Source: a virus. From it: a stretch of 64,000 nt of DNA. Within the stretch, counting starts at the first letter, position 1, and every line of letters starts with the position of its first letter. The DNA lies in IMG/VR virus record IMGVR_UViG_3300043425_001190, positions 23,298 through 87,297 of that record; one strand, 5' to 3'. This document shows positions 19,437 to 54,910 of this stretch, in pieces. The position numbers and the translations under genes were made by a program. Below the pieces are notes generated by a model, which did no database searches, had not been told where the DNA came from, and was given only the letters and a program-made list of their open reading frames with translations.

Positions 19437-19907
19437 TTACGCTTTGCTGATCGAAATGCCGCTTATTGAAACGTCCCTGTTCAACGCTCTGACAGTAACT
19501 TTGATGTCAATCAACCACCGGTTTCCATTAATGTCGGGGAACACGGATATGTTTGGTGCCGATACCCTTTTCTCCCATCTGGTGATGGCGTCTTTGATGG
19601 TTGCCCCTAAAATAGAAGCGTTGGCATCACTTACGACCATTTTGAAAATATACTGGTCTAGGTCGCACCCAAACTCTGGAAGGTGCACCATCTCACCAGG
19701 TTTAGTATATAGGATGTTCATGATAGAACGAATCACCGCACGTTCATCTTTAAGTGTCTCTATATCACCAGTTGGGTTGAACTTGCCCATGTTAATCATG
19801 TCAAGGTCCGACCAGGTAACGTCGACCGACTGCGGGTCTTTGGCCGATGAGGCGGTTGGGTCGGTTACTACATATCTAATGTTTACCGAGCTTAAATCGT
19901 ATCTCAT
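19437..19907 (-). CDS. baseplate wedge subunit gp25
   Basis: SDLD, AVIRSIMNILYTKPGE..LPEFGCDL, ITRWEKRV. Confidence 0.88.
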   Translation of the reverse strand: MRYDLSSVNIRYVVTDPTASSAKDPQSVDVTWSDLDMINMGKFNPTGDIETLKDERAVIRSIMNILYTKPGEMVHLPEFGCDLDQYIFKMVVSDANASILGATIKDAITRWEKRVSAPNISVFPDINGNRWLIDIKVTVRALNRDVSISGISISKA

Positions 19908-20767
19908 GATGGTACTTCTGGGGTTGGTGGTGGTGGAACCGGTACAATCGGAGCTCCGGTGGGAACTGGTGGGCCACCAACCCCAGGTCCACCAGAGTTA
20001 AGGTGGGTGTGGGAGTTTACAGATCCGTGTACTGACGTGATGATATCTAGAGCACTTACCGTTGCTGGGGTGATTATAGGCCCTAGCACGGTTAGGCTAC
20101 CTACGACCCAAACGTTGCCAGTAATCACCTGTATGGGTGCGGTAATATGTTTACTGGCGGCGTTCTCGACCACATCACCGACAACAGTAGATTCGCTTGA
20201 CCCGCCAACGTACTCATGTAGGTTTCCAGCAGTGGTATCTTTTCTTTTACCGGTAGATTTAAGATGAACACCAGACTTGCTCATTTTGATGTACGATTTG
20301 TTCTTGTGCGTAAACTGTATTCTTTCCTCTCCCGGCGTGCCATCGTACTCTACCGAGCATCCGCCAAACCCAACAACCGAGTTATCTGGATATTTGGCGG
20401 CATACTCTGAGTCGGATTCTTTACCAAGCTTAACCAGGTCTTCTGAGATTTCGCGAGCCAGAGAGTGCCAGTCAGGTACATCGTTTTCTATACACGATCT
20501 AGACCCGTCGTATATTGGGTGGCTAAGACTGCCGTTATCAAAGTATAGTGTGACTATTGTTCCAACTCGCGGAACCGAGAACATACCAGAGTTGGCACCA
20601 CCACCTAGGAAGGTCGGGGTCTTCTGGTAAGCCCATGGCAACCCGTCAGGGTTTAACTCTGTTGACTGATCAGACAACCCTGGAACATAAATGCGGACAC
20701 GGCCGGTCTTTAACGGGTCTTTGTTGTCGACAACCTTTCCAGTATAATAACCGTGATGGCGCATCAT
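19904..20767 (-). CDS. baseplate spike gp5/gpV-like (OB fold plus beta-helix, no lysozyme)
   Basis: GKVVDNKDPLKTGRVRIYVPG, LPWA, VPRVGTIV, EYDGTPGEERI, apex NSHTH. Confidence 0.85.
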   Translation of the reverse strand: MMRHHGYYTGKVVDNKDPLKTGRVRIYVPGLSDQSTELNPDGLPWAYQKTPTFLGGGANSGMFSVPRVGTIVTLYFDNGSLSHPIYDGSRSCIENDVPDWHSLAREISEDLVKLGKESDSEYAAKYPDNSVVGFGGCSVEYDGTPGEERIQFTHKNKSYIKMSKSGVHLKSTGKRKDTTAGNLHEYVGGSSESTVVGDVVENAASKHITAPIQVITGNVWVVGSLTVLGPIITPATVSALDIITSVHGSVNSHTHLNSGGPGVGGPPVPTGAPIVPVPPPPTPEVPS

Positions 20768-25718: not shown

Positions 25719-25975
25719 TTTATCATCCTGTTAATCTCTGATGTGTCGTATGACTGCGCTGGCTCGTCATCTCCCTGGCCGGTATTTACCCCATCCTCTT
25801 TCGCCTTCTTTATCTCGTCAATGTGTTTATCCACATAATAGTTGATGTCGTTTAGCGAGGTTCGGTAAAACCCAGCTAACGGTTGGTTGAACTCTTTCAT
25901 AAAAAGATAAGATACATCAAGCAGATATGCTATCTCTTGGTATATGGCGTCGAGGTCTCCTAACCTTAACGCCAC
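25697..25975 (-). CDS. gp51-like baseplate hub assembly protein
   Basis: small helical ORF right after gp26-like gene. Confidence 0.5.
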   Translation of the reverse strand: MALRLGDLDAIYQEIAYLLDVSYLFMKEFNQPLAGFYRTSLNDINYYVDKHIDEIKKAKEDGVNTGQGDDEPAQSYDTSEINRMIKCPTQPQ

Positions 25976-26799
25976 ACCACAAAAAAATCCTTATCCAACA
26001 AATTAGAGATCACCTTGTACTTGTTAGTGCACGATTCACATGTGACGTCGTTTACCTTCACCAGCTTTGAAATCTCCTTTGATATGTTGGCAATATTCAT
26101 CTCGGAGATCCGGTTTACCACGATGTTTGGCAACGACAGCATAACCTTAATTTTATCAGCGAGAGGTCTACCATCAAAACTCATACTAACCTCACCGATT
26201 TTAATTGCCGAAATGGTGGATGCCATAATCAACACGTTTTTGACCTGGTCGATATCCTCCTTACTCATGTCACCGAACGCCTTTTTGTCGGCAAAATAAC
26301 TGGCAATGTAAGACTCTAGGTTTTTATTGATTTCTTTTACGTCACCGTATAGAGGGTGGTTTACGTCAACTGAAATCCTACCACACTCAGCATGCATCGG
26401 GTATTCAACTTCGGCAATGGCCGAGTAGTATGCCTGCATTACCCCGTCAACAATCATGTCGATTTTAAGCTGATTTGGGTTCTTGCAAACGGGACACTCG
26501 CTAGTCATGTTGATCTCTGGACCATAAGCCGTTACTCTGGTGTGGGCCAAAAGGAAACTTACGTCCCAATCCGGTAGCGCATTAATATCAATTGACTGGT
26601 CGACTAATGTTCTCTTGACCAAATCAACACTTCGTTCAACTTTTTTTGATGAGTCGGCTGATACCGACTTTAAGGTATCAAGTCTGTGTTTAGCTGTAAT
26701 ATCTCTAGTTTTGATTTCAAGTTTCGATACCGGAAGCTTAACTTCATGTGCAAAGTCGTCTGACTCCATAGCGGCCAAAAGGTCTTTAATATCCGACAT
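25966..26799 (-). CDS. baseplate hub assembly chaperone gp26-like
   Basis: VKLPVSKLEIKTR, DVSFLLAHTRVTAYG, CPVC, CESC, terminal DFF. Confidence 0.8.
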   Translation of the reverse strand: MSDIKDLLAAMESDDFAHEVKLPVSKLEIKTRDITAKHRLDTLKSVSADSSKKVERSVDLVKRTLVDQSIDINALPDWDVSFLLAHTRVTAYGPEINMTSECPVCKNPNQLKIDMIVDGVMQAYYSAIAEVEYPMHAECGRISVDVNHPLYGDVKEINKNLESYIASYFADKKAFGDMSKEDIDQVKNVLIMASTISAIKIGEVSMSFDGRPLADKIKVMLSLPNIVVNRISEMNIANISKEISKLVKVNDVTCESCTNKYKVISNLLDKDFFVVWR

Positions 26800-26827: not shown

Positions 26828-28423
26828 TTACCGCAGAGATAGAATTTCGTCAACCTCTTTTTCTACCTCTTTGAGCTCCGCCAATGAGAAAGGCGCTGTA
26901 TACGCTCCACCAACCCTTTTCTGTTGCGCAGAGGTGAAGTGCCCTATTAGCTCTCCTACGTCGAGACCGGTTTCCTTCCATCCAACAAGGTAGTTGAACA
27001 GTTTGTCTCTAACAGGGTTAGGGAATGTGTGGTTGCCAACACGTTTAAACCTGTGAACCCATCTTATCCATGGTAGGCACATTACTTTATGTCCAGCGTT
27101 ACGGTATTTCTGGTGGATATATCCTTCCTCACCACCCCACGATCTAAAATGCTTGCTGAAGCCAGGCCATGATCTTTTGGCCGCCATAAACAGACCCATT
27201 CCATGCATCGGAATCTCAAACGGGATGTTGTCACGCCTTGTTTTCTCCGTCCATTTTCCAAAGAACAGTTCGTTCCATACAGGATCCATATGGCTAGCCC
27301 AGTCGTTTCCCATATGATCAACCAGTATGCCATGATATAGGTCATCGGTTATTGGTTCTAGCAGAAATTGTTGTAATTTGTCAGCCCCGTCTGGGTTCAG
27401 TAAAACATGGCAATCAATCACCAGAACATAATCGCTTGTCGCCAGGTTAAACAGCTCGCTACGAATTGATGTGGACTTCTTTTCGGTGTGGGTAATATAT
27501 CTGACAACGCCGCCACCTAGGGTTGCCGTCAATTTACCATCTTCACTATCTGGGTTATTATCTAAAATAATAACTTCGTTTATCAACTTTTTGAACGGTC
27601 CGTTCATCAATGATGCCAACGAAAAGAAGACACCCTGATAATCATCATAGCACGCCATACCAACAGTAAGAGTGGCCTGCCGTATTGTCTTTGGCTCTTT
27701 AAATTTTCTGACTTTATTATACTGGTCAGAGTTATTGGTATTGTTAACCAGGTCGTTTAGGCATACACGGCCAGATTTTATGGACCCGTTGTCCATAGCC
27801 GATTTGACAGTACTCTTTATTCTTTGCTCCCGGCCTTCGATATCGCCAAACACTGAGGCGCTGTATATGTTGCTACCAACCCGGTAAACAAGAAGACCTT
27901 CGGTCAGCGGTTTAAAACGTTTAACTCTAGAACCACTTTCCATCTTCGTTCTGGTGGTTTGGTCAAAGTCGTACTGGTGGGTGTTGAACGAGTATCCTCC
28001 CCTTTCAACAAGAGTCTTCTTATTATACATCACCCAGTTTGGGGCGGTAGACTCGGTGATACTATGGATGTTGCCAGCGTTTTGCAAGCAATACCCATGC
28101 GGAGATACCACATCATATTCGGCTGTCTTAATAATTGCCTCATAGGACCCCAGTACCCACGGCATCCAAACATCGTCATCATCAAGAACCGTTACATATT
28201 CGCCAGTTGTATACCCGACAGCTATATTATGGGCGTCTGGAAGATTTGGTCTAAAATCTAGGTTATACACTTTAATGTTATCGTACCCATCTAAAACTAG
28301 ATGCTGATCAACATTGGTGTTTAGTATTACTAACTCGGAGTTTATTACATTCTGGTCTAGGAAAGATCGTATAGTTTCCGGAAGTGAAACCCTGCCGTAC
28401 ACCACACATATGACGGATATCAT
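26828..28423 (-). CDS. two-domain GT-A glycosyltransferase (GT2 plus ppGalNAc-T-like domain)
   Basis: domain 1: ISVICVVYGR, SFLDQ, GEYVTVLDDDD; domain 2: IILDNN, VLVIDCH, GMGLF, SWGGEE, WVHRF. Confidence 0.85.
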   Translation of the reverse strand: MISVICVVYGRVSLPETIRSFLDQNVINSELVILNTNVDQHLVLDGYDNIKVYNLDFRPNLPDAHNIAVGYTTGEYVTVLDDDDVWMPWVLGSYEAIIKTAEYDVVSPHGYCLQNAGNIHSITESTAPNWVMYNKKTLVERGGYSFNTHQYDFDQTTRTKMESGSRVKRFKPLTEGLLVYRVGSNIYSASVFGDIEGREQRIKSTVKSAMDNGSIKSGRVCLNDLVNNTNNSDQYNKVRKFKEPKTIRQATLTVGMACYDDYQGVFFSLASLMNGPFKKLINEVIILDNNPDSEDGKLTATLGGGVVRYITHTEKKSTSIRSELFNLATSDYVLVIDCHVLLNPDGADKLQQFLLEPITDDLYHGILVDHMGNDWASHMDPVWNELFFGKWTEKTRRDNIPFEIPMHGMGLFMAAKRSWPGFSKHFRSWGGEEGYIHQKYRNAGHKVMCLPWIRWVHRFKRVGNHTFPNPVRDKLFNYLVGWKETGLDVGELIGHFTSAQQKRVGGAYTAPFSLAELKEVEKEVDEILSLR

Positions 28424-29250
28424 AAGGTCACAGTCAGGGTTACTGAGTTATCATAATCGCCGTTAAACAGCATGTTTGATGAACCAATCGGTACCACAAA
28501 ACTTGACATTTGGCCACCTTGAGCACCAGGTAACGCCGGGTATGCTGGGTACATATAGAACTCACCAATATGTACAGTTACCGTGTACGTGTCCCAGTTA
28601 ATGGTAAACCCAAAGGTTCCGGCCTCTAGGTTACCAGTGTCATACTGGTATGTTCCGTTACTGACGGTTGATACCGCCACCGATCCCGATGTTGAGAAGG
28701 CCGACGCTGGCGCGTACCCTGGACTATATGAAAACGAGAACATAATCGGCGAGGATCTTGGCTGTAAAGGTGGCTCCGTTGTCACAGGTGGCGGCTCGGT
28801 AGTGACAGGTGGCGGCTCCGTTGTCACAGGTGGCGGCTCGGTAGTGACAGGTGGCGGTTCAGTAGTGACAGGTGGCGGCTCCGTTGTCACAGGTGGCGGC
28901 TCGGTAGTGACAGGTGGCGGCTCGGTAGTGACAGGTGGCGGCTCGGTAGTGACAGGTGGCGGCTCGGTAGTGACAGGTGGCGGCTCAGTAGTGACAGGTG
29001 GCGGCTCGGTAGTGACAGGTGGCGGCTCGGTAGTGACAGGTGGCGGCGGAGGTTTTGGCCTACTAGATACAGCTCCACCCTGACTTGGTATATCGTTATT
29101 GTCGGATTTGACGGCCGATAGAAGCCACCTTCTGTCAGAGATTGCCTTCTGCATTACACCCTGTAAAGAAGACGAAACGGTAGTTTCGCTGGCCAAACGG
29201 CTGAGCGGGGTTGATCTCTGTGTTGGTCCGTTGCCGTACGCTCTTAGCAT
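28420..29250 (-). CDS. mucin-like Pro/Thr-rich repeat protein
   Basis: AGGA RBS before ATG 29250; about 13x PPPVTTE then beta-rich C-terminal domain; stop overlaps GT start (ATGA). Confidence 0.75.
   Translation of the reverse strand: MLRAYGNGPTQRSTPLSRLASETTVSSSLQGVMQKAISDRRWLLSAVKSDNNDIPSQGGAVSSRPKPPPPPVTTEPPPVTTEPPPVTTEPPPVTTEPPPVTTEPPPVTTEPPPVTTEPPPVTTEPPPVTTEPPPVTTEPPPVTTEPPPVTTEPPPVTTEPPLQPRSSPIMFSFSYSPGYAPASAFSTSGSVAVSTVSNGTYQYDTGNLEAGTFGFTINWDTYTVTVHIGEFYMYPAYPALPGAQGGQMSSFVVPIGSSNMLFNGDYDNSVTLTVTL
28769..29047. repeat. 21-bp tandem repeat, about 13 copies (GGTGGCGGCTCGGTAGTGACA)
   Basis: directly visible; variants differ only at synonymous positions of the minus-strand PPPVTTE frame. 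Confidence 0.95.
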
Positions 29251-29260
29251 ATTATGTCCT

Positions 29261-30772
29261 TTAGAATTGGTACCATGATGGCTGTGGTGGGGCTTCTGAT
29301 ATGGTACTGGTGGTTTTGGTTTGATCAAATGACGTGCCGCCAGCATCATACGCAGCGCTAGTATACTCACCAGAAGGTGTTGGCGGTGCAGTAAATGGCG
29401 ACTTAACCGATTCCCATGCTGACGAGGCACCATCAGATACCTTGTCGCCAACGTAACCAGCACCGTCTGAAACAGCGCCTCCGGCTGACCGTACAGCACC
29501 GCCAACTGACTTACCAAACACCCCGGTGTTATTTTCTAAACCGGTGAACACTTTAGCCCCATATTCACCAAGACCGGCACCTTGGTTATATATTCCCTCA
29601 GCTGAGTTCATTACTGCGCCCATGTTATCAAGGGTTAGACCACCATTTTTGATGCCGTCTACAGTGCTTTTGACTGTTTTAATAAGATCTTTGGCTTTAT
29701 TGACCTCGTTCTTGACGTCGCTATACACTTTTATGCCACGACGAACGTCTGTAATAGCGTCCCTAAACCCATAAGGTTTTGATCCAACCGGGTTTTCTGG
29801 TGTAATGCCAGGAAGAGGGGTTGTCTTTGGGATAAACTTAAATTTGTCTTGCGCCAACTTACCAAGGCCAGGTTTCTTTTTAGTAGATGACACAGATGTG
29901 GTTGATGTAGTCTTAGCCTCACGTTGAACGGCCACCCTGCGGTATGAAATACCAACACTGAAGGTTGATAACTCTTCGGTAGTGTAGTCTAAATCTTCAC
30001 CGGAAATTGATTCAACCTGCGATCCGTAGTATTTGTATGTCACAACGTTCTCGCCGTTAAAAGAATAACGGTTAATAGTGATGATAGCCTGGTTGTTGAA
30101 TGAGTTACCAATTTGTTCGATATTTGCCGTATTATTGGCAATGTTGTCAACCACATTGTAATCGGTATTTCTTCTTGATGCCATGGTATATAACGCTTGA
30201 CGCAAGATGCCGGCTGAATCATCTAGAAAGTCTATTTTTAGGTTTTCTACCGTAACACCGGTAGGGACTTTAACCGGTAGACTGTTTATAGACGGTTTTA
30301 TCTCCATAAACTGAGTTGTCGTGCCAGGTATGTTGACGGACCTGACAAAAATCTCGGCTGCTTCACCAGAAATTTCTATAGTAGACTCAGTTTTTACGCC
30401 ACCTGTGCTGGCATAGACATCATCAATAATACCAGCAAACTGTCCACCAAATTTGACTGTCCACAGGTACTTTGGTGTTGGAGCTACAGCCGAGGTTTCT
30501 GACCCACGAACAACAAGAGAGTAATACTTTGACATCAAATCTTTTAGCTGGGCTTTACCACCAGCAGATGTTGAGAACCTGTTGATTTCCTCGTCTGGTG
30601 TAGGCTCCATGTACGCAGGTTCACTGAACTCAGCCGGTAACTTAACCTCTTCTCCCCAGCCAATTTTACCAGGCGGCAGGAACTCCTCTGGTGTGATCCG
30701 TTTATGCTTATTGCTCAGACCCTTTGCTGGGACTGATCCAAAAATGTCTTCTGCCGAGTCAAGTATTCCCAT
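29261..30772 (-). CDS. tail tube-like baseplate protein (gp54/gp19-like domain) with long C-terminal extension
   Basis: PKYLWTVKF, VRSVNIPG, LKIDFLDD, LDYTTEELSTFSVGISY; late motif GATAAGTA at 30793..30800. Confidence 0.65.
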   Translation of the reverse strand: MGILDSAEDIFGSVPAKGLSNKHKRITPEEFLPPGKIGWGEEVKLPAEFSEPAYMEPTPDEEINRFSTSAGGKAQLKDLMSKYYSLVVRGSETSAVAPTPKYLWTVKFGGQFAGIIDDVYASTGGVKTESTIEISGEAAEIFVRSVNIPGTTTQFMEIKPSINSLPVKVPTGVTVENLKIDFLDDSAGILRQALYTMASRRNTDYNVVDNIANNTANIEQIGNSFNNQAIITINRYSFNGENVVTYKYYGSQVESISGEDLDYTTEELSTFSVGISYRRVAVQREAKTTSTTSVSSTKKKPGLGKLAQDKFKFIPKTTPLPGITPENPVGSKPYGFRDAITDVRRGIKVYSDVKNEVNKAKDLIKTVKSTVDGIKNGGLTLDNMGAVMNSAEGIYNQGAGLGEYGAKVFTGLENNTGVFGKSVGGAVRSAGGAVSDGAGYVGDKVSDGASSAWESVKSPFTAPPTPSGEYTSAAYDAGGTSFDQTKTTSTISEAPPQPSWYQF

Positions 30773-46755: not shown

Positions 46756-48534
46756 TCAAGCGTTGATCGTTCCGCCGTTATTGACGAAGGTTGTCCCAGT
46801 GTGAGCGAAACCACCTTTGTTGATAACTCCACCAGCGTTGACGGTCACCGTTCTGGTGCCGGTGGTGTTGGCCGTGTAGGTGAGAGTACCATTGACGGTG
46901 GTGGCTCCGATGGTCAACGAAGCCGCCCCGCCGATTGTCAGGGTACTGCCGGAGTCGACTGTCATTGTTCCGATGGTCGTGTTGGTACCCGACAGGGTGA
47001 GGTTGCCTGAGACTGTCCAGTTACCCGTGCCGCCGATGACACCTGACAAGGTCTGAGAGACAGACGAGGCCCAGACAACAGTACCGTTGAAGCCCATCGG
47101 CATGGCGGAGTTGCCAGATGCCCAGGAGAATGTCCCGGCGAAAGTTGCTTTGCCAGTGAAGGAACCGAAGGCGGTGCCGAAGCCCCAATAAGAGTTCGCA
47201 TGGGCAGCTGGGCACGAGCCGGTGAATTTGACGTGGCCGGCACCATTGATGTAGAGGCCAAACCCACCTACGGCGTTGGCACCGATTGGCCCTTTGATTT
47301 CAAGGTCGCCGGTGGCGTTGTTGGCACCGTTGGAGACGCTGATCCGGTAGCCATAACCACCGTCCAGGACGGTAACTGTGGAGTCGATTACCGACCCAGA
47401 GGCAGCGGAGTTTACGGTGAGGAAGATACCGTTGACGTCGAATCCACGAATGGTTCCAGACGTGCCGTTACTCGCCCGAATTGTGCTCGGAGCAACGGAG
47501 AGGACTATATCGCCGTTATACCAGGCTGGAACGTACAGACCTGAAGTGTCAGCTGCCGACACGCCGTTGACAGTCACTGTTCTGACCCCGTAACCACCAG
47601 ATACACTGGACGCTTGCATGTCGAGAGTCGCACCGGCACCGACCGTGATACCAGAGGTAAACAAGTTATCTGGGTTGACCGTGATACGCACCGTGCCGTT
47701 GGTGATACTGAGGATGCCAGCGCCAGCAACGACGTTGTTGGTGGCGAACACCAACGTTCCGGGTCGGGTCTTGGACGTCGTCTTACCGTTCCTGTTGAAT
47801 GTTGTCGATGCACCGATGGTTACGGTTACGCCTGGCTCAACCCTGATAGTAGAGTTGGCAGCTAGTGTGACAATGTTGGCTCCGAAGTTGAAGTCGTAGT
47901 CGAAACGCGGGGTTCCAAGCAAATTGACCCCTCGACATGTCGGCAAGGTGTAACCGCCCGAGTTGATGATGGGGCCATCGCCGAGAGATAGCAGCATGTT
48001 CGGGCTAATTTGAGTAGCAGTGAGGTCGAGGGAGGCGTTACCGAGCCCAGGCGCAAACCTCAGGTCGCCGGTGAACTCCGAGGTGTCGGTGAGTCGGTAC
48101 TGGCCCATGACGACCCCGACTGCAACGGTCGGGGCGTCAATCTTCAGTATGCCGTCGCCGGTCAGTTTACTGATGGTGCACAGAGCACCAGCGGTGTTGT
48201 CGCCGCCTTTACGCTTCAGGGTCAAAACCGCGCCATCGATGGCCAGGTTGGGGATAGTCCAGGCGCTGTTGTTGCCCTGCTCGTCCCAGGTCTGGTCATT
48301 CCTGACGCGTGCTCCGCCGATCCCTTTAAACAGGGTGCGGACCACTCCGTCGGTATTGCCGGTGAGGCCCGCTGCTGGGACCACCACGGCAGGTGCCGGG
48401 ACAATCGGTCGGCTGTCCAGTGTGATGGCACTCGGAATGCGAATCTCGCCAGCGGTGAGCGACTTGAATAGGTCGTTCAACGAGGCACCGTTGACAGTGC
48501 CGCCTGGTGATTCAAGTAGCGACGGGGTGGGCAT
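46756..48534 (-). CDS. beta-helix adhesin-like protein (autotransporter-associated beta-strand-like repeats)
   Basis: G/T/N-rich repeats such as GNLTLSGTNTTIGTMTVDSG, TLSGVIGGTG. Confidence 0.65.
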   Translation of the reverse strand: MPTPSLLESPGGTVNGASLNDLFKSLTAGEIRIPSAITLDSRPIVPAPAVVVPAAGLTGNTDGVVRTLFKGIGGARVRNDQTWDEQGNNSAWTIPNLAIDGAVLTLKRKGGDNTAGALCTISKLTGDGILKIDAPTVAVGVVMGQYRLTDTSEFTGDLRFAPGLGNASLDLTATQISPNMLLSLGDGPIINSGGYTLPTCRGVNLLGTPRFDYDFNFGANIVTLAANSTIRVEPGVTVTIGASTTFNRNGKTTSKTRPGTLVFATNNVVAGAGILSITNGTVRITVNPDNLFTSGITVGAGATLDMQASSVSGGYGVRTVTVNGVSAADTSGLYVPAWYNGDIVLSVAPSTIRASNGTSGTIRGFDVNGIFLTVNSAASGSVIDSTVTVLDGGYGYRISVSNGANNATGDLEIKGPIGANAVGGFGLYINGAGHVKFTGSCPAAHANSYWGFGTAFGSFTGKATFAGTFSWASGNSAMPMGFNGTVVWASSVSQTLSGVIGGTGNWTVSGNLTLSGTNTTIGTMTVDSGSTLTIGGAASLTIGATTVNGTLTYTANTTGTRTVTVNAGGVINKGGFAHTGTTFVNNGGTINA

Positions 48535-48537
48535 GGT

Positions 48538-49416
48538 TTAGACCTGGGTGTAGCCGCCGGCCATCCGGACGATGTGGGTGATTGAAAGGATACCGGCCTC
48601 GATCTCGTTGCCGGCCGAGGAGCCTCCCCAGGTGGCAACCGAGACTTCAGGGTCGACAAGCTCGGTGCCGTCCTCGAAGATGGTCATATGGAGTTGGTCG
48701 GTGATGACGATGCGGGCGACCTCTTTTGACGCAGCTTCGTTGACGAGCTCGCCGGTGTCGGCCCACTCGGTTTCATCCTCGATGCAATAATAGATCTCTT
48801 CGCGCGGCCAGCGTTTGATCGCCTTGAACTCCCAGATGCGGAGGAAGCGACGGGTGTCACCTTGGCGGACCGCGACGATCTCGATCTCGGCGATGGCAGC
48901 CGGATCGGGGAGTGGCAGCGGAACTCCGTCGAGGATTTCGGCGTAGCCGCGATTGGTGGCATACTGCTGGAGGACAGCCTGTAGGCGGGAAACAACCGCG
49001 ATACCAGCAGCAGACGCTCTCCAGCCAGCCGTGGTGACCTGCGGGTTGACGTAAAGGTATTGGGTCTCCGGGAAGAAGACCTGCAGGCCGGTTGGTGTGA
49101 TCGCCACCTCGGCAGCATCGACGCCGGAGATGAACTCGCCGTCACTGGTCCACTCAAGCTCGTCCTCGACGTGGTAGGAAATCTTCGGCAATGGCCAATT
49201 GGTCATTGCGGCGAACTCCCACACCCGAAGGTAACGCGAGGTGTTGGCCCTGGGGGCTACGATGGGGATCTGCGCCAGAGGGGTCCATACCGGTGGCGTG
49301 TCGACGAGGGTGACGCTGACGATGTTGTCGCCGACGACAGGCGGGACCAGGAACGGGATGTCCTGGTAGCTGCCGTTGGTGTAGACGACGCGGTAGAGTG
49401 ATTCGCCGGGGGCCAT
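48538..49416 (-). CDS. hypothetical protein with duplicated WEF..WP domain
   Basis: two internal copies: RYLRVWEFAAMTNWP and RFLRIWEFKAIKRWP. Confidence 0.75.
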   Translation of the reverse strand: MAPGESLYRVVYTNGSYQDIPFLVPPVVGDNIVSVTLVDTPPVWTPLAQIPIVAPRANTSRYLRVWEFAAMTNWPLPKISYHVEDELEWTSDGEFISGVDAAEVAITPTGLQVFFPETQYLYVNPQVTTAGWRASAAGIAVVSRLQAVLQQYATNRGYAEILDGVPLPLPDPAAIAEIEIVAVRQGDTRRFLRIWEFKAIKRWPREEIYYCIEDETEWADTGELVNEAASKEVARIVITDQLHMTIFEDGTELVDPEVSVATWGGSSAGNEIEAGILSITHIVRMAGGYTQV

Positions 49417-49427
49417 GGTGGGAGTCC

Positions 49428-50612
49428 TTAGGTAATGCCGTATTTGGATTTAAACGCGGATACAACGGTAGCCAGGTATGCTTTATCCGGGGTGCCATAG
49501 ACACCGACAGCGCAGGTGTCGTTAGCGTCAAACTGAACCCCACTGGAGTTTCCGCTGCGAACCAGACCGCCGACAGTCAGGCGGTCAATGTCAGTACGAG
49601 GGACGCAGGAGACGGATTCTTCTGCACCACCATCAATGCTGAGGTAGGCCGTGGTCGGTGTGACCCGCAGCAGGTAAAGGTGAAGAGCGCCGGTGGTAGC
49701 GGCGTTGGCAGAGTTGATGTCGTGAAGGGCATTACCCGAGTCGACGAGGTATACTCTCGGCTTATTGCTGTTGAACGCCGAGTCCGGCATGATTGCGTTG
49801 TAGGCGCTACCGTCACTGAACAGGTTCCAAGCCACAGCCATGCCGCTGTCATTCGTAGTTGACTTACAAACGAGCAGTATAGCAAACGAGCGTGAGTTCA
49901 ACGCGGCAAGGAGCGTGGTGTTCGTCCACTGGGTGACCTGACCTGCGCCGTCGTAGGATAGCGATGCGTGCCCGTTGTATGTAGCGCCGGCCGGTGGTGT
50001 CGAGCCGATCTGGGTGGCGGCGGCCCCTGTCGAAGACTGATCCGTGAATCCGGTGTCGCCCTCAATGAGTAACTTGAGCTGTGGGCCGACCAGTGGGAAC
50101 AGTTCGCGGCGTTGAATGTCGGTATCGGGGTAGACGACAGCTGATCCGTTAGACCCGACAGCGGCAGACAGATTGCGACGCTGAATGTCGGTATCCGGGT
50201 AGGTGACGGTGGAACCGTTAGACCCGACAGCGGCAGACAGGTTGCGGCGTTGGATATCTGCGTCTGGGTAGGTGACGGTAGATCCACTCGCTCCAACTGA
50301 CGCCGTCAGGTTGCGGCGTTGGATATCTGCGTCTGGGTAGGTGACGGTAGAACCGCTCGATCCAACAGATGCCACCAGGTTACGGCGCTGAATGTCGGCG
50401 TCTGGGTAGGTGACGGTCGAACCGCTCGATCCAACAGATGCCACCAGGTTACGGCGCTGAATGTCGGCGTCCGGTACCGTGGTTGACCCAGCACCGTTCC
50501 CGACACAGGCAGCGGGGTTGCGGCGCTGAATGTCGGTGTCTACCCACACGACTGAGCCGACTCCCTGGGCGAGCCCGGAGCACAGCATGGCGTGAGTGAG
50601 GAAGGTGCGCAT
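49428..50612 (-). CDS. repeat protein with C-terminal ConA/LamG-like domain
   Basis: 7x DIQRR-containing 23-aa repeats; C-terminal LHLYLLRVTPTTAYLSIDG..LTVGG. Confidence 0.7.
   Translation of the reverse strand: MRTFLTHAMLCSGLAQGVGSVVWVDTDIQRRNPAACVGNGAGSTTVPDADIQRRNLVASVGSSGSTVTYPDADIQRRNLVASVGSSGSTVTYPDADIQRRNLTASVGASGSTVTYPDADIQRRNLSAAVGSNGSTVTYPDTDIQRRNLSAAVGSNGSAVVYPDTDIQRRELFPLVGPQLKLLIEGDTGFTDQSSTGAAATQIGSTPPAGATYNGHASLSYDGAGQVTQWTNTTLLAALNSRSFAILLVCKSTTNDSGMAVAWNLFSDGSAYNAIMPDSAFNSNKPRVYLVDSGNALHDINSANAATTGALHLYLLRVTPTTAYLSIDGGAEESVSCVPRTDIDRLTVGGLVRSGNSSGVQFDANDTCAVGVYGTPDKAYLATVVSAFKSKYGIT
50100..50545. repeat. about 69-bp tandem repeat, 7 units (PDADIQRRNLxAxVGSxGSTVTY)
   Basis: visible in nucleotide and protein sequence. 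Confidence 0.85.
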
Positions 50613-50618
50613 AATTGG

Positions 50619-51533
50619 TTAGCTAGCTTGGTTGAACGTCGGTGCGCCGACGAGTGAGGCGACAAGTGACGATTGGACCGTGAGTGGATCGGTGACGACG
50701 TTATAGCCGTTCTGTGTGACCTTGAAGTCGGCAATGAGCGGGAGTACAGAGACACTGCTTGAGCAGCTTCCGAGGTACCACACGGCATCGGTAGCAGTCT
50801 GCGCCCCGCCAAAGATGTAGTTAGAGCTGGCCCCTGAGGTGACGGACACTCCGTTCATTTCTAGGGTTACGGTCGGGGTGGCAGAGGCGGTAATCGTAAT
50901 CTTGACGGAATACCAACGGCCGCGCACGATACCAAATGCGGAAGAGTTGGAGATCGGCAGTTGCTGGGTGTTTGAGGCGTTCCGCAGGTACAAAGTCACC
51001 GCGTTACCGTTACCAATCTGACTGATTCCAAGGAACAAAGTAGCCATCGCGGCGGTCACGCTAGAGTTGGCGCTACCTTCCGTGGAGGCGACCGCCGTAG
51101 ACAGCGAGGCTGCGGTTCTGCCGAGGAACACATAGCGAAGACCAGCGTCGGCAACCGGGACATAAATGTCGGCTTCGATAACTGTGTCCGCAGTGGCACT
51201 TGAGTTGACAATACCAGCAGTCACAGTGGTGTTGAAGATCAGACCAGAGCTGAGGTTGGCGTGGGCCTTCATCCCTTTCTCTTTGACTGAGATGGTCTGG
51301 TTGATGATGACGTCAGACTGCCCGATCTTGGTGCAGGTGACCTGGACGGAGTAGTCTCGGCAAAGGTAGTTGGTGGCAGCTTTGAACTGCACGTCGTTGC
51401 CCGTTATCTGGAACAGGGAGTTGTCGGCAAATCCGGGGGTGAGCGCGAAGGACCAGCCGTCCGGGACCTCCTCTGTGGTGTTGACGAAGCAGCCGAAGAT
51501 GTTCTGCGCGGCGGTGGTGGAGTAAATGGCCAT
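50619..51533 (-). CDS. cadherin-like plus ConA/LamG-like virion protein
   Basis: ADNSLFQITGNDVQFK..YSVQVT cadherin-like; GRWYSVKITI..LEMNG LamG-like. Confidence 0.6.
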   Translation of the reverse strand: MAIYSTTAAQNIFGCFVNTTEEVPDGWSFALTPGFADNSLFQITGNDVQFKAATNYLCRDYSVQVTCTKIGQSDVIINQTISVKEKGMKAHANLSSGLIFNTTVTAGIVNSSATADTVIEADIYVPVADAGLRYVFLGRTAASLSTAVASTEGSANSSVTAAMATLFLGISQIGNGNAVTLYLRNASNTQQLPISNSSAFGIVRGRWYSVKITITASATPTVTLEMNGVSVTSGASSNYIFGGAQTATDAVWYLGSCSSSVSVLPLIADFKVTQNGYNVVTDPLTVQSSLVASLVGAPTFNQAS

Positions 51534-51545
51534 GGCGGTTGGTCC

Positions 51546-52367
51546 TTATTGCTTGAAGATGAGGATTTCAGTGCCGGACACCCAGAGGAACGCGGCTGCT
51601 TTGTAGGATGGTAGGGAGAATGACGCAGTACCACCCTTCGGGGTCATTGCGACGTCGACGTTTACCGTGATGGCACTTCCGCTGTCGTTGAACACAGTGA
51701 CCTGGGTATTGGCGGTCAGCACGGCGACGGTAGTGGTGCCGTCGACGCCAACTACCTTGCCGGCGTCACCCTGAACCAAGGTATAGGCTCCGGCAGACTT
51801 GCGAGAGTATTCGGCGGCGCGAGGGAGGAAGTCGGCGGCAGCAGCCACCGCAGCGGTGCCGAGCCCCAGGTTGGTGCGGGCGGTAGCGGCGCTAGCGAGG
51901 TCTGAGAGGTTGTTACTAGAGAGGAGGCCGCCGACCAGATTGTGCTCGACGATGAACCAGCTGGTACCGACCGCCGCTTGGGTGCCGCCCGCGTTGATCG
52001 ATTTGGCGACAACGAGGTCACCGATGTCGACGTTGAGACCGCTGGCACCGCCCACCTTACCGGCAGCACTGATCGTCCAGGCCTGGTAGGCGGCGGTAGC
52101 GTTGGGGTAGTTCGGGTTGGCCGAGCAGTCAAGATCACCCATGCCCTTGTAGACACTGGTGATCAAGCCGTCGGCGTAGGTGCGGGTGCAGGCGTCACTG
52201 CCGGCCTGCGGTGCCCCGAGGTTGGTGATGCGGAAGCCACCCCAGTCAGTGTCGACCGCGCCGAGGCCGATGGCTAGGCGCTGGGCGGCAGCACTGGCGG
52301 CTTTGAGAACGGAGCGGCCGGCAGCAGTGTGGCCGACCAGGTCACGGAGTCCTTGGAGGAAACTCAT
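51546..52367 (-). CDS. tail fibre protein
   Basis: RITNLGAPQAGSDACTRTYAD, SNNLSDLASAATARTNLGLGTAA fibre motifs. Confidence 0.75.
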   Translation of the reverse strand: MSFLQGLRDLVGHTAAGRSVLKAASAAAQRLAIGLGAVDTDWGGFRITNLGAPQAGSDACTRTYADGLITSVYKGMGDLDCSANPNYPNATAAYQAWTISAAGKVGGASGLNVDIGDLVVAKSINAGGTQAAVGTSWFIVEHNLVGGLLSSNNLSDLASAATARTNLGLGTAAVAAAADFLPRAAEYSRKSAGAYTLVQGDAGKVVGVDGTTTVAVLTANTQVTVFNDSGSAITVNVDVAMTPKGGTASFSLPSYKAAAFLWVSGTEILIFKQ

Positions 52368-54910
52368 TAGATCACCTCCCAGCGGGTCTTGGCGGAGTTG
52401 TAGCGGAACACGTAGGTGTCTCCCGAGTATGCGGTGAAGGATGCGACGTCCCCGAACACCGTCTGAGCGGCGGTGATGGTGCAGGCGGTGATAACAGGGC
52501 TACCCAGTGCGACAGTGCCGCCGAAGGTGACGCTAACCTCGACCTTATCCTCTGGGGAACTTGGGAGGGTGTAGGTGGCGGAGGCTTGCAGGGATGTGTC
52601 TACACTGCATCGACCTTCAAACAGGTTCTGGTTTCCAACGGCGGTGATGTCGGTATGAGTCATGACACCACGGCTGACCGACCCACCCATGAACACCCAG
52701 GTAGGTGTAGCAGGCCCGACTGCGCAGTACTTCCACTTGAAGACAACGTCCGCGTCCTTGAAGTTGAGGCCGGGTGGAGTCAGGATGGCTGTACCAGCGC
52801 CTGCGTTCAGGGTCAATGCTGTGACACCAAACGCGCCGGTGGAAAGGGTGAACTCCGTACCATCAACCAGAACGGTGGCGGCAGGGAGGTTGACTGTCGC
52901 CGCGTTGAGTTGGCTAGTGCCGCCGAAGTGGACGTGGTTGTCGTTTACCACGAGGTTGATCGTGGTAGCGGTGGCACCAGTGTTGGTGTTGTAGACGTAG
53001 TTGGTGGCGAAACCACGGAGAGCGGTAAGGACGCCGCCCTTACTGATCTTGGCGGAAGCGGTAAGCGAGGTGCCGACGCCGACAGCGAATACCATCTCCA
53101 TCAGCTGCGAAGCGCTGTTCCAGGCGAAGGCTTGGGTGGAGTTAGTGCGGATGGTACCGCCAATGAATGCACCCGCATCACCGCAGAAGAATAGGTCAAC
53201 GAACTTGTTCGCGGTTGTTGCTGCAGAGACGTTGACCAGGGCCAACCCGACGACACCAGAAGCAAGGTTGCCTTTAATCTGGGCTACCGGCGTAGTGTTG
53301 GCAGCTGGGGCTGACTGGATGACGTGGGTACCAGTGCCGGCCGCGTTGCCTAATGTAATGATACCGGAGGTGAGTCCAGGCCCAATATTAATGGCTCCGG
53401 TCGTTTGTGTGCTACTGCCTAGTTGGGTTGTGGCACCAGCGGCAGCGATACCGAAGACAGCGGACGAAGAACTAGTCACCGTTGTGAAGATGACGTTGTT
53501 GTTGCTGATGGTGAAGGTGCCGGTACCAGTGGCGGTCATCGACGTGTTACCGTTGGCACCTGCTGCACGCGTCAGGGAGAAAGTGGCCGAGTTACCGCCG
53601 TTGGAGTAGAAGGCAAGCGATTGACCAACAGCAGAAAATCCCCATTTGTTTACCGATATCTGGCCATCAATTGCGACGCCGTTGTTAAAAAGTTGCGACA
53701 CTGTAATTGGTGTTGTGCCGATGGTGATCGCGGACGTGTTGGTGATGGCAACCTCGGCACCACTGGTATTGGCGTTGCCGTTTGCTTTGGCAACCGCTCG
53801 CATACCTAGAAGAGTGGCACTGGAGTTGGCCCAGGTCGGACGGGTCCAGGCACCAGCAGACGCCAGCCAGAAACCGTTGTTGACGGATCCGGCCCCCTGG
53901 ACAGCGACGAAGATCAGATCGTCCGCCACCGGGGTATAACCGTCAGTCGCGCCGAGCCCGGAAAAACTAGGGGCGGTAATCATGATCATGTCGACAGTGA
54001 CACTCTTGGTGGCCGCCAGCTTGTTGAAACCCTCTACCGATAACAACCCAGACGACGTAACGGTGGCAACACCTACCGGAGCCGATTGCGGGCGTGTCCA
54101 CCTAATATGTAAAACGGTAGCCGACTGGGCCACACCGACAGGTACGTTAAGAGTGCCTGCTGTGTTAGCCATCTGACCAGGGGTATCACTGAGATACATG
54201 GTATCACCGGAGGTTAATCCGGTTGTGATAAACCTGGTTCCGGGCATCTGGTACACAAAGTTATTAACATCGGCAACTGACTTGACAACACCCACCCATT
54301 CTGCGTTTGTGGCGGTGGTGGCGTCAGCCTTTGCATATGTGTCTGCCCCGGTAACTCTAATCCAGTCACCAACAACTAGACCGTGTGATGCCTGGGTAAC
54401 CGGCACCTCACCAAACTCTGTACTATCACCAGCCGACCTCCAAACCACCGACAACGAGTGGTTGTTAGCGTAGTTGGTTGTGCCGCTACCTGTACTTGAG
54501 ATTAAGGAGACCGGAATCGAAAGATATGATCCGTTGGCATGGTCAAAGAATGTCGGGCTACCAGAGATTTGCCATCTCTGTGTGTTTGAGCTGTCGTCTT
54601 TATCACCTATAAACAACGAGTCACCAACAGACATCGACTGTAGAACCGGGTCAATATCTATACCATCAAAAGTGAGGTGATCAATGAAAATAACGGTTGA
54701 ACTAACCTGTGTTGCGTTATTCCATAGGATATAACCATCACCAGGGTCACCAGACGTAGCTGACGTTTTAGCTTTGAATTCAAGGATTTGTGATCCACCA
54801 CCGACATCAACAGACCACGTAGCAACTCCACCAACCACCTTTAAACTGTATCCTTCGGGACCAGGTTTAAAGGTTTTTACGTCTACTGTTTGGATATCTG
54901 CAATACTCAT
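52367..54910 (-). CDS. long tail fibre protein
   Basis: 847 aa; QASHGLVVGDWI..YAKADA, GLTSGDTMYLS, NNGFWLASAGAWTR motifs; late motif TTAAATA at 54930..54936. Confidence 0.75.
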   Translation of the reverse strand: MSIADIQTVDVKTFKPGPEGYSLKVVGGVATWSVDVGGGSQILEFKAKTSATSGDPGDGYILWNNATQVSSTVIFIDHLTFDGIDIDPVLQSMSVGDSLFIGDKDDSSNTQRWQISGSPTFFDHANGSYLSIPVSLISSTGSGTTNYANNHSLSVVWRSAGDSTEFGEVPVTQASHGLVVGDWIRVTGADTYAKADATTATNAEWVGVVKSVADVNNFVYQMPGTRFITTGLTSGDTMYLSDTPGQMANTAGTLNVPVGVAQSATVLHIRWTRPQSAPVGVATVTSSGLLSVEGFNKLAATKSVTVDMIMITAPSFSGLGATDGYTPVADDLIFVAVQGAGSVNNGFWLASAGAWTRPTWANSSATLLGMRAVAKANGNANTSGAEVAITNTSAITIGTTPITVSQLFNNGVAIDGQISVNKWGFSAVGQSLAFYSNGGNSATFSLTRAAGANGNTSMTATGTGTFTISNNNVIFTTVTSSSSAVFGIAAAGATTQLGSSTQTTGAINIGPGLTSGIITLGNAAGTGTHVIQSAPAANTTPVAQIKGNLASGVVGLALVNVSAATTANKFVDLFFCGDAGAFIGGTIRTNSTQAFAWNSASQLMEMVFAVGVGTSLTASAKISKGGVLTALRGFATNYVYNTNTGATATTINLVVNDNHVHFGGTSQLNAATVNLPAATVLVDGTEFTLSTGAFGVTALTLNAGAGTAILTPPGLNFKDADVVFKWKYCAVGPATPTWVFMGGSVSRGVMTHTDITAVGNQNLFEGRCSVDTSLQASATYTLPSSPEDKVEVSVTFGGTVALGSPVITACTITAAQTVFGDVASFTAYSGDTYVFRYNSAKTRWEVI

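Follow-up and report, generated by a model that had tools for sequence, protein, structure and literature searches.

A glycosyltransferase gene coupled to a Pro/Thr-repeat gene among phage tail genes

We analyzed a stretch of 64,000 nucleotides, hereafter called the window, which is the last 64 kb of the 87,297-base IMG/VR virus record IMGVR_UViG_3300043425_001190 (CheckV completeness 40%). The virus is an uncultured freshwater T4-like phage, and all positions given below are those of the window. Two neighboring genes on the minus strand are the subject of this study: an open reading frame (ORF) for a 276-aa protein with a tandem repeat rich in Pro and Thr, the putative glycosylation substrate (28420..29250), and an ORF for a 531-aa two-domain glycosyltransferase (GT; 26828..28423). 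In the tetranucleotide ATGA at 28420-28423, the stop codon of the repeat gene overlaps the start codon of the GT gene by 4 nt, confirming a coupling described in a first-pass annotation made from the DNA letters alone. An AAGGA site lies 6 nt ahead of the repeat-gene ATG at 29250, and a public gene call for this protein, P0127, starts at the same Met.

The two genes are co-oriented and are spaced by 10 and 28 nt from the tail genes that flank them. On one side lies the gene for a 277-aa T4-type baseplate hub protein (25966..26799, minus strand), which matched PF12322 (T4_baseplate; E 3.8e-11) and phrog_150 (baseplate hub; E 4.1e-13). On the other lies the gene for a 503-aa protein with a gp19-type tail-tube fold (gp54/gp48-like; 29261..30772, minus strand), which matched phrog_4542 (tail tube protein) at E 6e-7; its match to PF06841 (E 0.0036) falls below the cut-off, so that the tube-fold assignment is weak. 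With this reservation about one neighbor, the phage-encoded GT and its partner are indeed wedged between tail genes, as first proposed.

The second domain of the GT resembles polypeptide GalNAc-transferases in modeled fold and motifs

To PF00535 (Glycos_transf_2), the 531-aa GT as a whole scored 76.9 bits against a cut-off of 23.3, with separate matches at residues 3-111 (E 4e-11, 43.6 bits) and about 254-420 (E 4.6e-9, 36.9 bits). The motifs DDDD (81), IDCH (336), GMGLF (408), SWGGEE (428) and WVHRF (455) follow one another along the chain, in agreement with the two GT-A domains and the motif order noted at first pass. No hydrophobic segment or membrane anchor was found in the protein (maximum Kyte-Doolittle 19-residue mean, 1.41). 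Domain 1 (residues 1-249; 27677..28423, minus strand) is a small GT2-type GT-A domain and a putative extending transferase, in which DDDD (residues 81-84) is the acidic DxD-type metal/nucleotide motif. Its nearest clusters in the Atlas (structural TM 0.84) consist of viral GT2 proteins, 229-254 aa long, that stand alone.

Domain 2 (residues 250-531; 26828..27676, minus strand) is a GT-A domain resembling polypeptide GalNAc-transferases (ppGalNAc-Ts; family GT27), with D337-x-H339, SWGGEE at 428 and H457, and is a putative initiating protein O-glycosyltransferase. We aligned it with 20 short relatives (alignment A1) and built an AlphaFold (AF2) model on this alignment, which reached a pLDDT of 89.4 and a pTM of 0.88. 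The alignment has D-x-H, PFEIPMHGxG, GGEEGY and W-x-H-x-F-x-R as invariants; the Asp, both His residues and GGEE are kept in 21 of 21 members.

When the model was compared with the PDB by Foldseek, all 34 of the 34 matches listed (ranks 1-47) were ppGalNAc-Ts, among them human T2, T4, T7, T10 and T12, mouse T1, Toxoplasma T3 and Drosophila PGANT9A (best E 4.3e-16, TM 0.72). Similarly, VIA-align against 48,161 chains placed mouse GalNAc-T1 first (Z 21.6, rmsd 3.0, 255 residues aligned) and Toxoplasma GalNAc-T3 second (Z 20.9), followed after a gap by B4GALNT1 (17.0), WrtF (16.6), K4CP (16.3), and SpsA and TarS (15.3). The modeled fold of domain 2 is thus nearest to solved GT27 structures, not to polysaccharide or DNA glycosyltransferases, which is the outcome anticipated when a structural comparison of residues of about 250-531 was suggested at first pass.

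WGGE is the defining motif of Gal/GalNAc-transferases. The model of the WGGE region, PF02709, matched domain 2 weakly (E 0.021, 14.9 bits), below its cut-off of 23. A phmmer alignment of 200 residues to human GalNAc-T2 pairs D337/H339 with D224/H226, GMGLF with GGLF, SWGGEE with WGGEN, and H457 with H359. According to PMC4202792, the Mn2+ ligands in mouse GALNT1 are Asp209, His211 and His344, and GT27 enzymes carry a C-terminal ricin-like lectin domain. By alignment, D337, H339 and H457 are the predicted Mn2+ ligands of domain 2. Pfam detected no lectin family in the phage GT even at E <= 10, and its chain ends about 30 residues past the catalytic domain. GT27 enzymes are type II membrane proteins of the secretory pathway. 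Identity in the structural alignments of domain 2 to GT27 enzymes is 13-18%. Because the sequence matches are weak (E 0.013-0.077) and neither a ricin lectin domain nor a membrane anchor is present, we did not file domain 2 under GT27: its model is shaped like these enzymes and bears the same motifs, but membership by sequence is not established.

No homologs of domain 2 were detected in deposited phage genomes

We listed at least 119 non-self relatives of the GT, which cover about half of the query; for three of them the aligned region is residues 250-500, at 42-52% identity. The closest among the matches listed is P0002 (52% identity). Most relatives of domain 2 are single-domain enzymes, and in P0004 both GT domains are fused in the reverse order. 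Cellular homologs of domain 2 are fused to tetratricopeptide repeats (TPR) and to PF05402, which we take to be PqqD, a peptide-binding module. Fusion partners across homologs of domain 2 (P0003, P0022, P0043, P0048, P0051, P0120 and others) are PF00754, TPR, PF05402, PF01755 (GT25), PF13640 and PF13578; the PF00754 fusions are marine proteins of about 430 aa, and the TPR was named by JGI for P0033. PF00754 is presumably the sugar-binding F5/8 type C domain.

Relatives of domain 2 are present in hundreds of viral and metagenomic contigs. By contrast, tblastn against 50,697 deposited phage genome records gave no match to the whole GT (E <= 1e-5), nor to domain 2 or its marine homolog P0051 (E <= 1e-3). 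The family of domain 2 therefore seems to be absent from deposited phage genomes, which leaves metagenomic sequence as the only present source for work on the phage system.

The partner is a mucin-like repeat protein

The repeat protein has three parts. Its N-terminal region (residues 1-68; 29047..29250, minus strand) belongs to no known family; we found no relative of it at E <= 0.01 among 11 candidates and no tblastn match in 161 fetched loci. Next comes a tandem array (28772..29047, minus strand) in which Tandem Repeats Finder detected a 21-bp unit in 13.1 copies (score 468, 92% matches). The peptide encoded by this array, residues 69-159, is made up of 13 exact copies of PPPVTTE, and 26 of its 91 residues are Thr. 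Pro accounts for 19.9% of the full-length protein, Thr for 15.2% and Ser for 10.1%, and its tandem repeats rich in these residues make it mucin-like in the sense of a Pro/Thr/Ser (PTS) domain; dense O-glycosylation, the other mark of such domains, would be the prediction here. It is the only protein in the 87-kb record with a strong Pro/Thr/Ser tract. Both Thr residues of every unit have Pro at +3, a context favored by ppGalNAc-T/GT27 enzymes. No hydrophobic segment was detected (the Kyte-Doolittle 19-residue mean peaks at 0.71), so the earlier description of a 276-aa protein with about 13 PPPVTTE repeats and no signal peptide stands.

Among the 13 units, four DNA columns vary, all at codon position 3, and the peptide is the same in every unit. 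This pattern argues that the array is coding but leaves the strand undecided, because the antisense frame, (GGSVVTG)n, has identical third positions. A plus-strand ORF of 166 aa (28583-29083) is open through the whole array as (GGSVVTG)n. The minus-strand reading is favored, since a Met behind a good ribosome-binding site opens a frame that continues in phase to the conserved C-terminal domain, the other gaps in the operon measure only 10-28 nt, the plus-strand ORF would cross the conserved domain in antisense, and P0127, as called by ENA, has this Met as its start and contains PPPVTTE. Public gene calls disagree on the protein: P0122 (JGI/IMG) has 107 aa, P0126 is a fragment of 86 aa, and P0127 (ENA) has 199 aa. 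P0127, from the ENA assembly, has the same N-terminus, four conservative changes in the C-terminal domain, and 2 repeats versus 13. The copy number of 13 hence rests on a single assembly. Logan contigs of the sequencing runs X1 and X2 stop at 28801/28813 and resume at 29018, and none of the contigs listed spans the array; contig depths were unusable as copy numbers. The count of 13 is thus neither confirmed nor refuted by contigs from public runs.

The C-terminal part (residues 170-276; 28420..28743, minus strand) is an all-beta domain with eight predicted strands, similar to MBG-type adhesin repeats. Its AF2 model was unusable (pLDDT 45), and a search of the Atlas with the domain gave no usable match. 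A phmmer search of 1.84 billion representatives returned five proteins: P0122, P0121 and three giant proteins, each of which matches the domain repeatedly. One of the giants, P0123 (1785 aa; E 1.9e-11), matched in 11 stretches and has 13 MBG_2 domains and a Por_Secre_tail, the sorting tail of type-IX secretion. From these matches, the beta domain appears to resemble the repeats of bacterial surface adhesins. P0121, the only close homolog, is 61% identical to it (60% by BLASTP); there the domain forms the N-terminus, and poly-Thr tracts come after it. The longest contigs of P0121 and of P0002, the closest GT homolog, both have 25,682 bases, which suggests that a related phage keeps the beta-domain/GT pair; a metagenome search for the contig of P0002 found nothing above 52% identity.

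Pro/Thr/Ser-rich genes recur upstream of the GT

Next, we examined the neighborhoods of GT relatives. With the A1 profile, 474 of 535 candidate stretches in viral contigs encoded relatives, and we kept 80 loci and added one. In metagenome contigs 562 of 596 candidates were relatives, and in bacterial genomes 395 of 476; 80 loci were kept from each. ORFs were called by script. Genes were marked when Pro, Thr and Ser together made up at least 80% of any 30-aa window in their product, and GT clusters were drawn at 70% identity.

In the viral set, marked genes were concentrated upstream of the GT: 27 of 79 genes at position -1, 5/74 at -2, 9/71 at -3 and 3/63 at -4, versus 2/293 at +1 to +4 and 2/501 further away. 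Counted by cluster, a marked gene occurred within four genes upstream in 14 of 28 and downstream in 2 of 28 (Fisher p 0.0008); in 7 of the 28 it stood directly upstream on the same strand. The metagenome set repeated this pattern more weakly, with 13/71 at -1, 5/52 at -2 and 6/644 elsewhere (clusters: 12/46 upstream versus 3/52 downstream, p 0.0096). The co-occurrence of the GT with Pro/Thr-repeat genes, which had been named at first pass as something to look for in related phages, is therefore found as an upstream enrichment, and is not universal. The bacterial loci include Arenicellales, Desulfobulbaceae, Rhizobiales and Streptomyces, and their GTs are mostly long multidomain proteins (median ORF 650 aa).

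The partner proteins, strongly mucin-like in composition, contain runs of 30-100 Thr, or PT, ST or TTTP repeats. Beyond these tracts they show no relation to one another: a right-handed beta-helix was recognized in one and Ig-like domains in another, whereas most matched no family. Across the 27 loci of the largest viral cluster, a Gp10_C baseplate gene and two Mtd_N fiber genes precede the partner gene. Short Thr-rich partners in four loci (L003 5336-5980, L017 5516-5980, L028 5447-5980 and L059 4246-5978) share the C-terminal ending C-x-x-x-C-N-K-L-G-F/Y.

Further glycan-related genes accompany some pairs. GT2 genes similar to domain 1 adjoin domain-2 genes in 9 of 81 viral and 7 of 80 metagenome loci; a GT2 gene lies between the Thr-rich gene and the GT in L066 and directly after the GT in L023. 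Between the Thr-rich gene and the GT, L002 (4067-5957) has a GT25, an S-adenosylmethionine (SAM) methyltransferase and a Sulfotransfer_2 gene, and L006 (3889-5337) has a GT2-FkbM methyltransferase fusion. These tailoring genes hint that any glycans made at L002 and L006 would be methylated or sulfated.

Genomic and environmental context

The T4-type tail module lies on the minus strand and comprises genes for the sheath, a gp19-type tube, the 503-aa tube-fold protein, the hub and a gp5-type spike (19904-20767, minus strand; PF04717). The sheath gene matched many T4-like phages by tblastn, every one at <60% identity, and the gp19-type tube gene matched phrog_45 at E 8.6e-35. Searching viral contigs with the hub protein revealed no close phage relatives. 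No replication gene was seen near the pair in the window. The T4 late-promoter motif TATAAATA had 2 matches versus 1.4 expected, none of them near the pair, and scans for sigma-70 promoters and terminators gave nothing usable. Elsewhere in the window, a GC-rich island on the minus strand (46756-54910; GC about 0.60 versus about 0.45 in the remaining window) contains six consecutive ORFs of 273-847 aa, none with a Pfam match at E <= 0.001.

In three sequencing runs, 91-97% of the sampled words were recovered; each is labeled as a freshwater metagenome, and they belong to two studies, one of them possibly the source of this DNA. Contigs of run X2, which comes from the other study, show no difference from the window to either side of the array. 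Runs with only a small share of the words (X8-X21) were left out of the analysis. In a freshwater metatranscriptome run (X6), seven contigs at least 99% alike to the window lie on the pair and its upstream neighbor, a hint that the pair is transcribed, with the proviso that DNA may be present in such libraries.

Proposed mechanism and its weighing against alternatives

From the anatomy of the genes, the resemblance of domain 2 in fold and motifs, and the recurrent pairing, we infer that the two genes form a phage-encoded cassette for cytoplasmic protein O-glycosylation in a tail/baseplate operon, a reading to which we give a probability of roughly 55%. The case for glycosylation is computational throughout. 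Judging by the tail operon in which they lie, both soluble proteins would be produced together late in infection. As the alignment suggests, D337, H339 and H457 of domain 2 would hold the Mn through which a UDP-sugar is bound, and the domain would put a first sugar on Thr residues of the (PPPVTTE)n stalk. Domain 1, the fused small GT2, would then add a second sugar; such a two-step pathway fits the occurrence of domain-1-like GT2 genes as separate neighbors of domain-2 genes, and the fusion in reverse order. In the resulting protein, a short N-terminal region would be followed by a rigid, glycosylated Pro/Thr stalk, which may hold the C-terminal beta domain, similar to adhesin repeats, away from the particle. 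The position in the tail operon and the adhesin-like domain are suggestive of a particle component, and attachment to the tail or baseplate is our guess from gene position. The acceptor role of the repeat protein, the order in which the domains act, the kind of sugar and the place in the virion are all putative parts of this model.

Several results weigh against the cassette. By phmmer, domain 2 does not match GalNAc-T2 and GalNAc-T10 significantly (E 0.013-0.15; 0.013 for GalNAc-T2), and the family profile prefers TarP, a teichoic-acid GT (6e-7, N-terminal half only), with K4CP (0.005) and GalNAc-T10 (0.077) weaker than that. The JGI/IMG gene call on this very record, P0122, consists of the last 107 aa of the repeat protein only. 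The repeat protein matches no known virion protein family and is only a candidate virion component; no relative of its N-terminal region came up, and the model of its beta domain was unusable. Pairing with a Pro/Thr/Ser-rich gene is seen in only about half of the viral and about a quarter of the metagenome clusters, and in bacterial genomes it is faint (6/68 at -1 versus 8/882 at all other positions). In a quick IQ-TREE phylogeny, domain 2 of the window sits on a long, unplaced branch (length 1.59), so that the tree does not group it with a clade that shows the pairing; its own neighbor, not phylogeny, is the ground for counting it among the protein-glycosylating enzymes. Finally, 16 of 104 tree representatives, which cluster together, have the GT in a replication module, in the order DnaB helicase, primase, dNMP kinase, PD-(D/E)XK nuclease, GT, unknown gene and Pol III alpha, and no Thr-rich neighbor was found in loci of this subclade. 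This gene order is seen in L037 (1752-10213), and the same in L042, L053, L072, L106, L108, L110, L128, L145 and L150. The subclade may use another acceptor, possibly DNA, as a DNA-glycosylating branch. Of the O-glycosylation reading put forward at first pass, then, the GT27-like fold, the aligned motifs and the recurrent upstream Pro/Thr/Ser-rich gene have held; GT27 membership by sequence is not established, and the pairing is not universal.

That subclade, lying between a nuclease and Pol III alpha and beside a dNMP kinase, suggests DNA modification, and is one ground for supposing that the GT acts on a non-protein acceptor (a polysaccharide or lipid of the host envelope, or phage DNA) and adjoins the repeat gene as a co-inserted accessory gene. 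The best profile match also points this way, TarP being a wall-teichoic-acid GT, as do the two GT-A domains per chain, which recall the polysaccharide polymerase K4CP, and the scarcity of Pro/Thr/Ser-rich neighbors among bacterial homologs. We nevertheless consider a non-protein acceptor unlikely: every polysaccharide GT trails the GT27 enzymes by 4 Z units, the excess of Pro/Thr/Ser-rich genes within the loci is confined to positions -1 to -4, the pair is ATGA-coupled inside tail genes and far from any replication genes seen in the window, and the sole close relative of the beta domain has poly-Thr tracts as well.

Alternatively, the GT might glycosylate other virion proteins, alone or additionally, with PPPVTTE serving as an unglycosylated rigid linker. 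At their C-termini, the 503-aa gp54-like protein has a tail rich in Thr, Ser and Pro and the gp5-like spike a Pro-rich one, and in mycobacteriophages glycans are placed at the C-termini of capsid and tail-tube subunits, as PMC12801897 and PMC12619734 report. These tails are weak (<= 60% Pro/Thr/Ser in a 20-aa window) beside the single strong tract of the repeat protein, and in other phages the GT is repeatedly accompanied by a gene with long Thr-rich tracts, not by a capsid or tube gene; we regard such targets as improbable. Lower still do we rate the chance that the array is not translated as PPPVTTE, the real gene being a 107-aa ORF from Met170 or the plus-strand (GGSVVTG)n, which would leave no mucin-like substrate. 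It would agree with the JGI/IMG call, with the start of the homologous domain of P0121 at residue 1, and with the plus-strand ORF that is open through the array and shares its synonymous third positions. Yet no site comparable to the AAGGA was seen before Met170, about 517 nt would stay noncoding if the gene had only 107 codons, against gaps of 10-28 nt in the rest of the operon, and the plus-strand ORF would run antisense across 160 nt of the conserved domain. The in-phase minus frame and P0127, described above, argue against it too, as does the array itself, whose period is a multiple of 3 and whose variation is all synonymous.

Relation to known glycosylation systems

With the cassette as our preferred reading, we compared it with known systems. 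GT27 ppGalNAc-Ts (human GalNAc-T2, 2FFU and 4D0T; mouse GalNAc-T1, 8V9Q; Toxoplasma GalNAc-T3, 8UHV) share the GT-A fold and are the best structural match; their DxH, downstream His and WGGE align with domain 2, and the presumed acceptor here is a Pro/Thr-rich tandem repeat, as in mucins. GT27 enzymes are retaining and transfer GalNAc from UDP-GalNAc to Ser/Thr residues of polypeptides. Unlike them, the phage GT has no ricin lectin, signal anchor or stem, is soluble and presumably cytoplasmic, and carries an extra N-terminal GT2 domain. Some phage homologs have a C-terminal PF00754 where GT27 enzymes have the ricin lectin. K4CP, the chondroitin polymerase of E. coli K4 (2Z86), likewise has two GT-A domains per chain, one of them of the Gal/GalNAc-transferase type, but it matches domain 2 less well in structure than GT27 does (Z 16.3, 5 units lower), so a polymerase is not the closest structural relative.

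In serine-rich repeat adhesins of Gram-positive bacteria, a Ser/Thr-rich stalk displays a binding domain and is glycosylated in the cytoplasm by neighboring enzymes (GtfA/B, GlyE), with initiation followed by extension. The phage pair would follow the same logic; GlyE (5GVV) aligned to domain 2 with a structural Z of 11.4. In the adhesin system the initiating enzyme is a GT-B pair and export is by accessory Sec, whereas the phage enzyme is of the GT-A type, is phage-encoded and comes with no export signal. Chlorovirus glycosylation uses other enzyme families and puts N-linked or atypical glycans on the capsid protein. The hosts of chloroviruses and giant viruses are eukaryotes, unlike that of this tailed phage with its mucin-like putative substrate. 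These viruses are reported to encode an autonomous, cytoplasmic machinery (PMC4691112) that glycosylates their own structural proteins without need of the secretory pathway of the host.

Virion O-glycosylation in mycobacteriophages (Freeman et al. 2023, Cell Host Microbe, cited in PMC12801897 and PMC12619734) reportedly affects the C-termini of capsid and tail-tube subunits. There too, phage GTs among structural genes modify proteins of the phage's own particle; the putative target here is instead a dedicated repeat protein. Within the reach of our literature search, mycobacteriophages are where glycosylation of phage particles by phage enzymes is in print. That search, which left subscription journals mostly outside, turned up no publication in which phage enzymes resembling GalNAc-Ts are paired with Thr-rich proteins. 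What sets the present locus apart is that two domains are fused in one enzyme, that the pair lies within a baseplate operon of T4 type, and that the PPPVTTE array is exact.

Mucin-type O-glycosylation is, to our knowledge, regarded as a eukaryotic trait. As a broader and more tentative proposal, for which we would not claim even odds, uncultured aquatic tailed phages may carry a self-contained mucin-type system: a large viral GalNAc-T-shaped lineage, possibly a sister of GT27, would start glycans on dedicated Thr/Pro-rich proteins, and neighboring GT2, GT25, methyl- and sulfotransferases would finish them. In the phage studied here, starter and extender would be fused, and a glycosylated bottle-brush stalk would hold the adhesin-like domain off the baseplate. 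If the pair works as proposed, the family would supply small, soluble, bacterially expressible GalNAc-T-like enzymes for glyco-engineering and would open the question of the origin of GT27. It would also mean that tailed phages of freshwater and marine habitats build mucin-like glycoproteins of their own with an enzyme shaped like those that initiate the process in animals, which bears on their adhesion to surfaces, on how they hide from defenses or grazers, and on host recognition.

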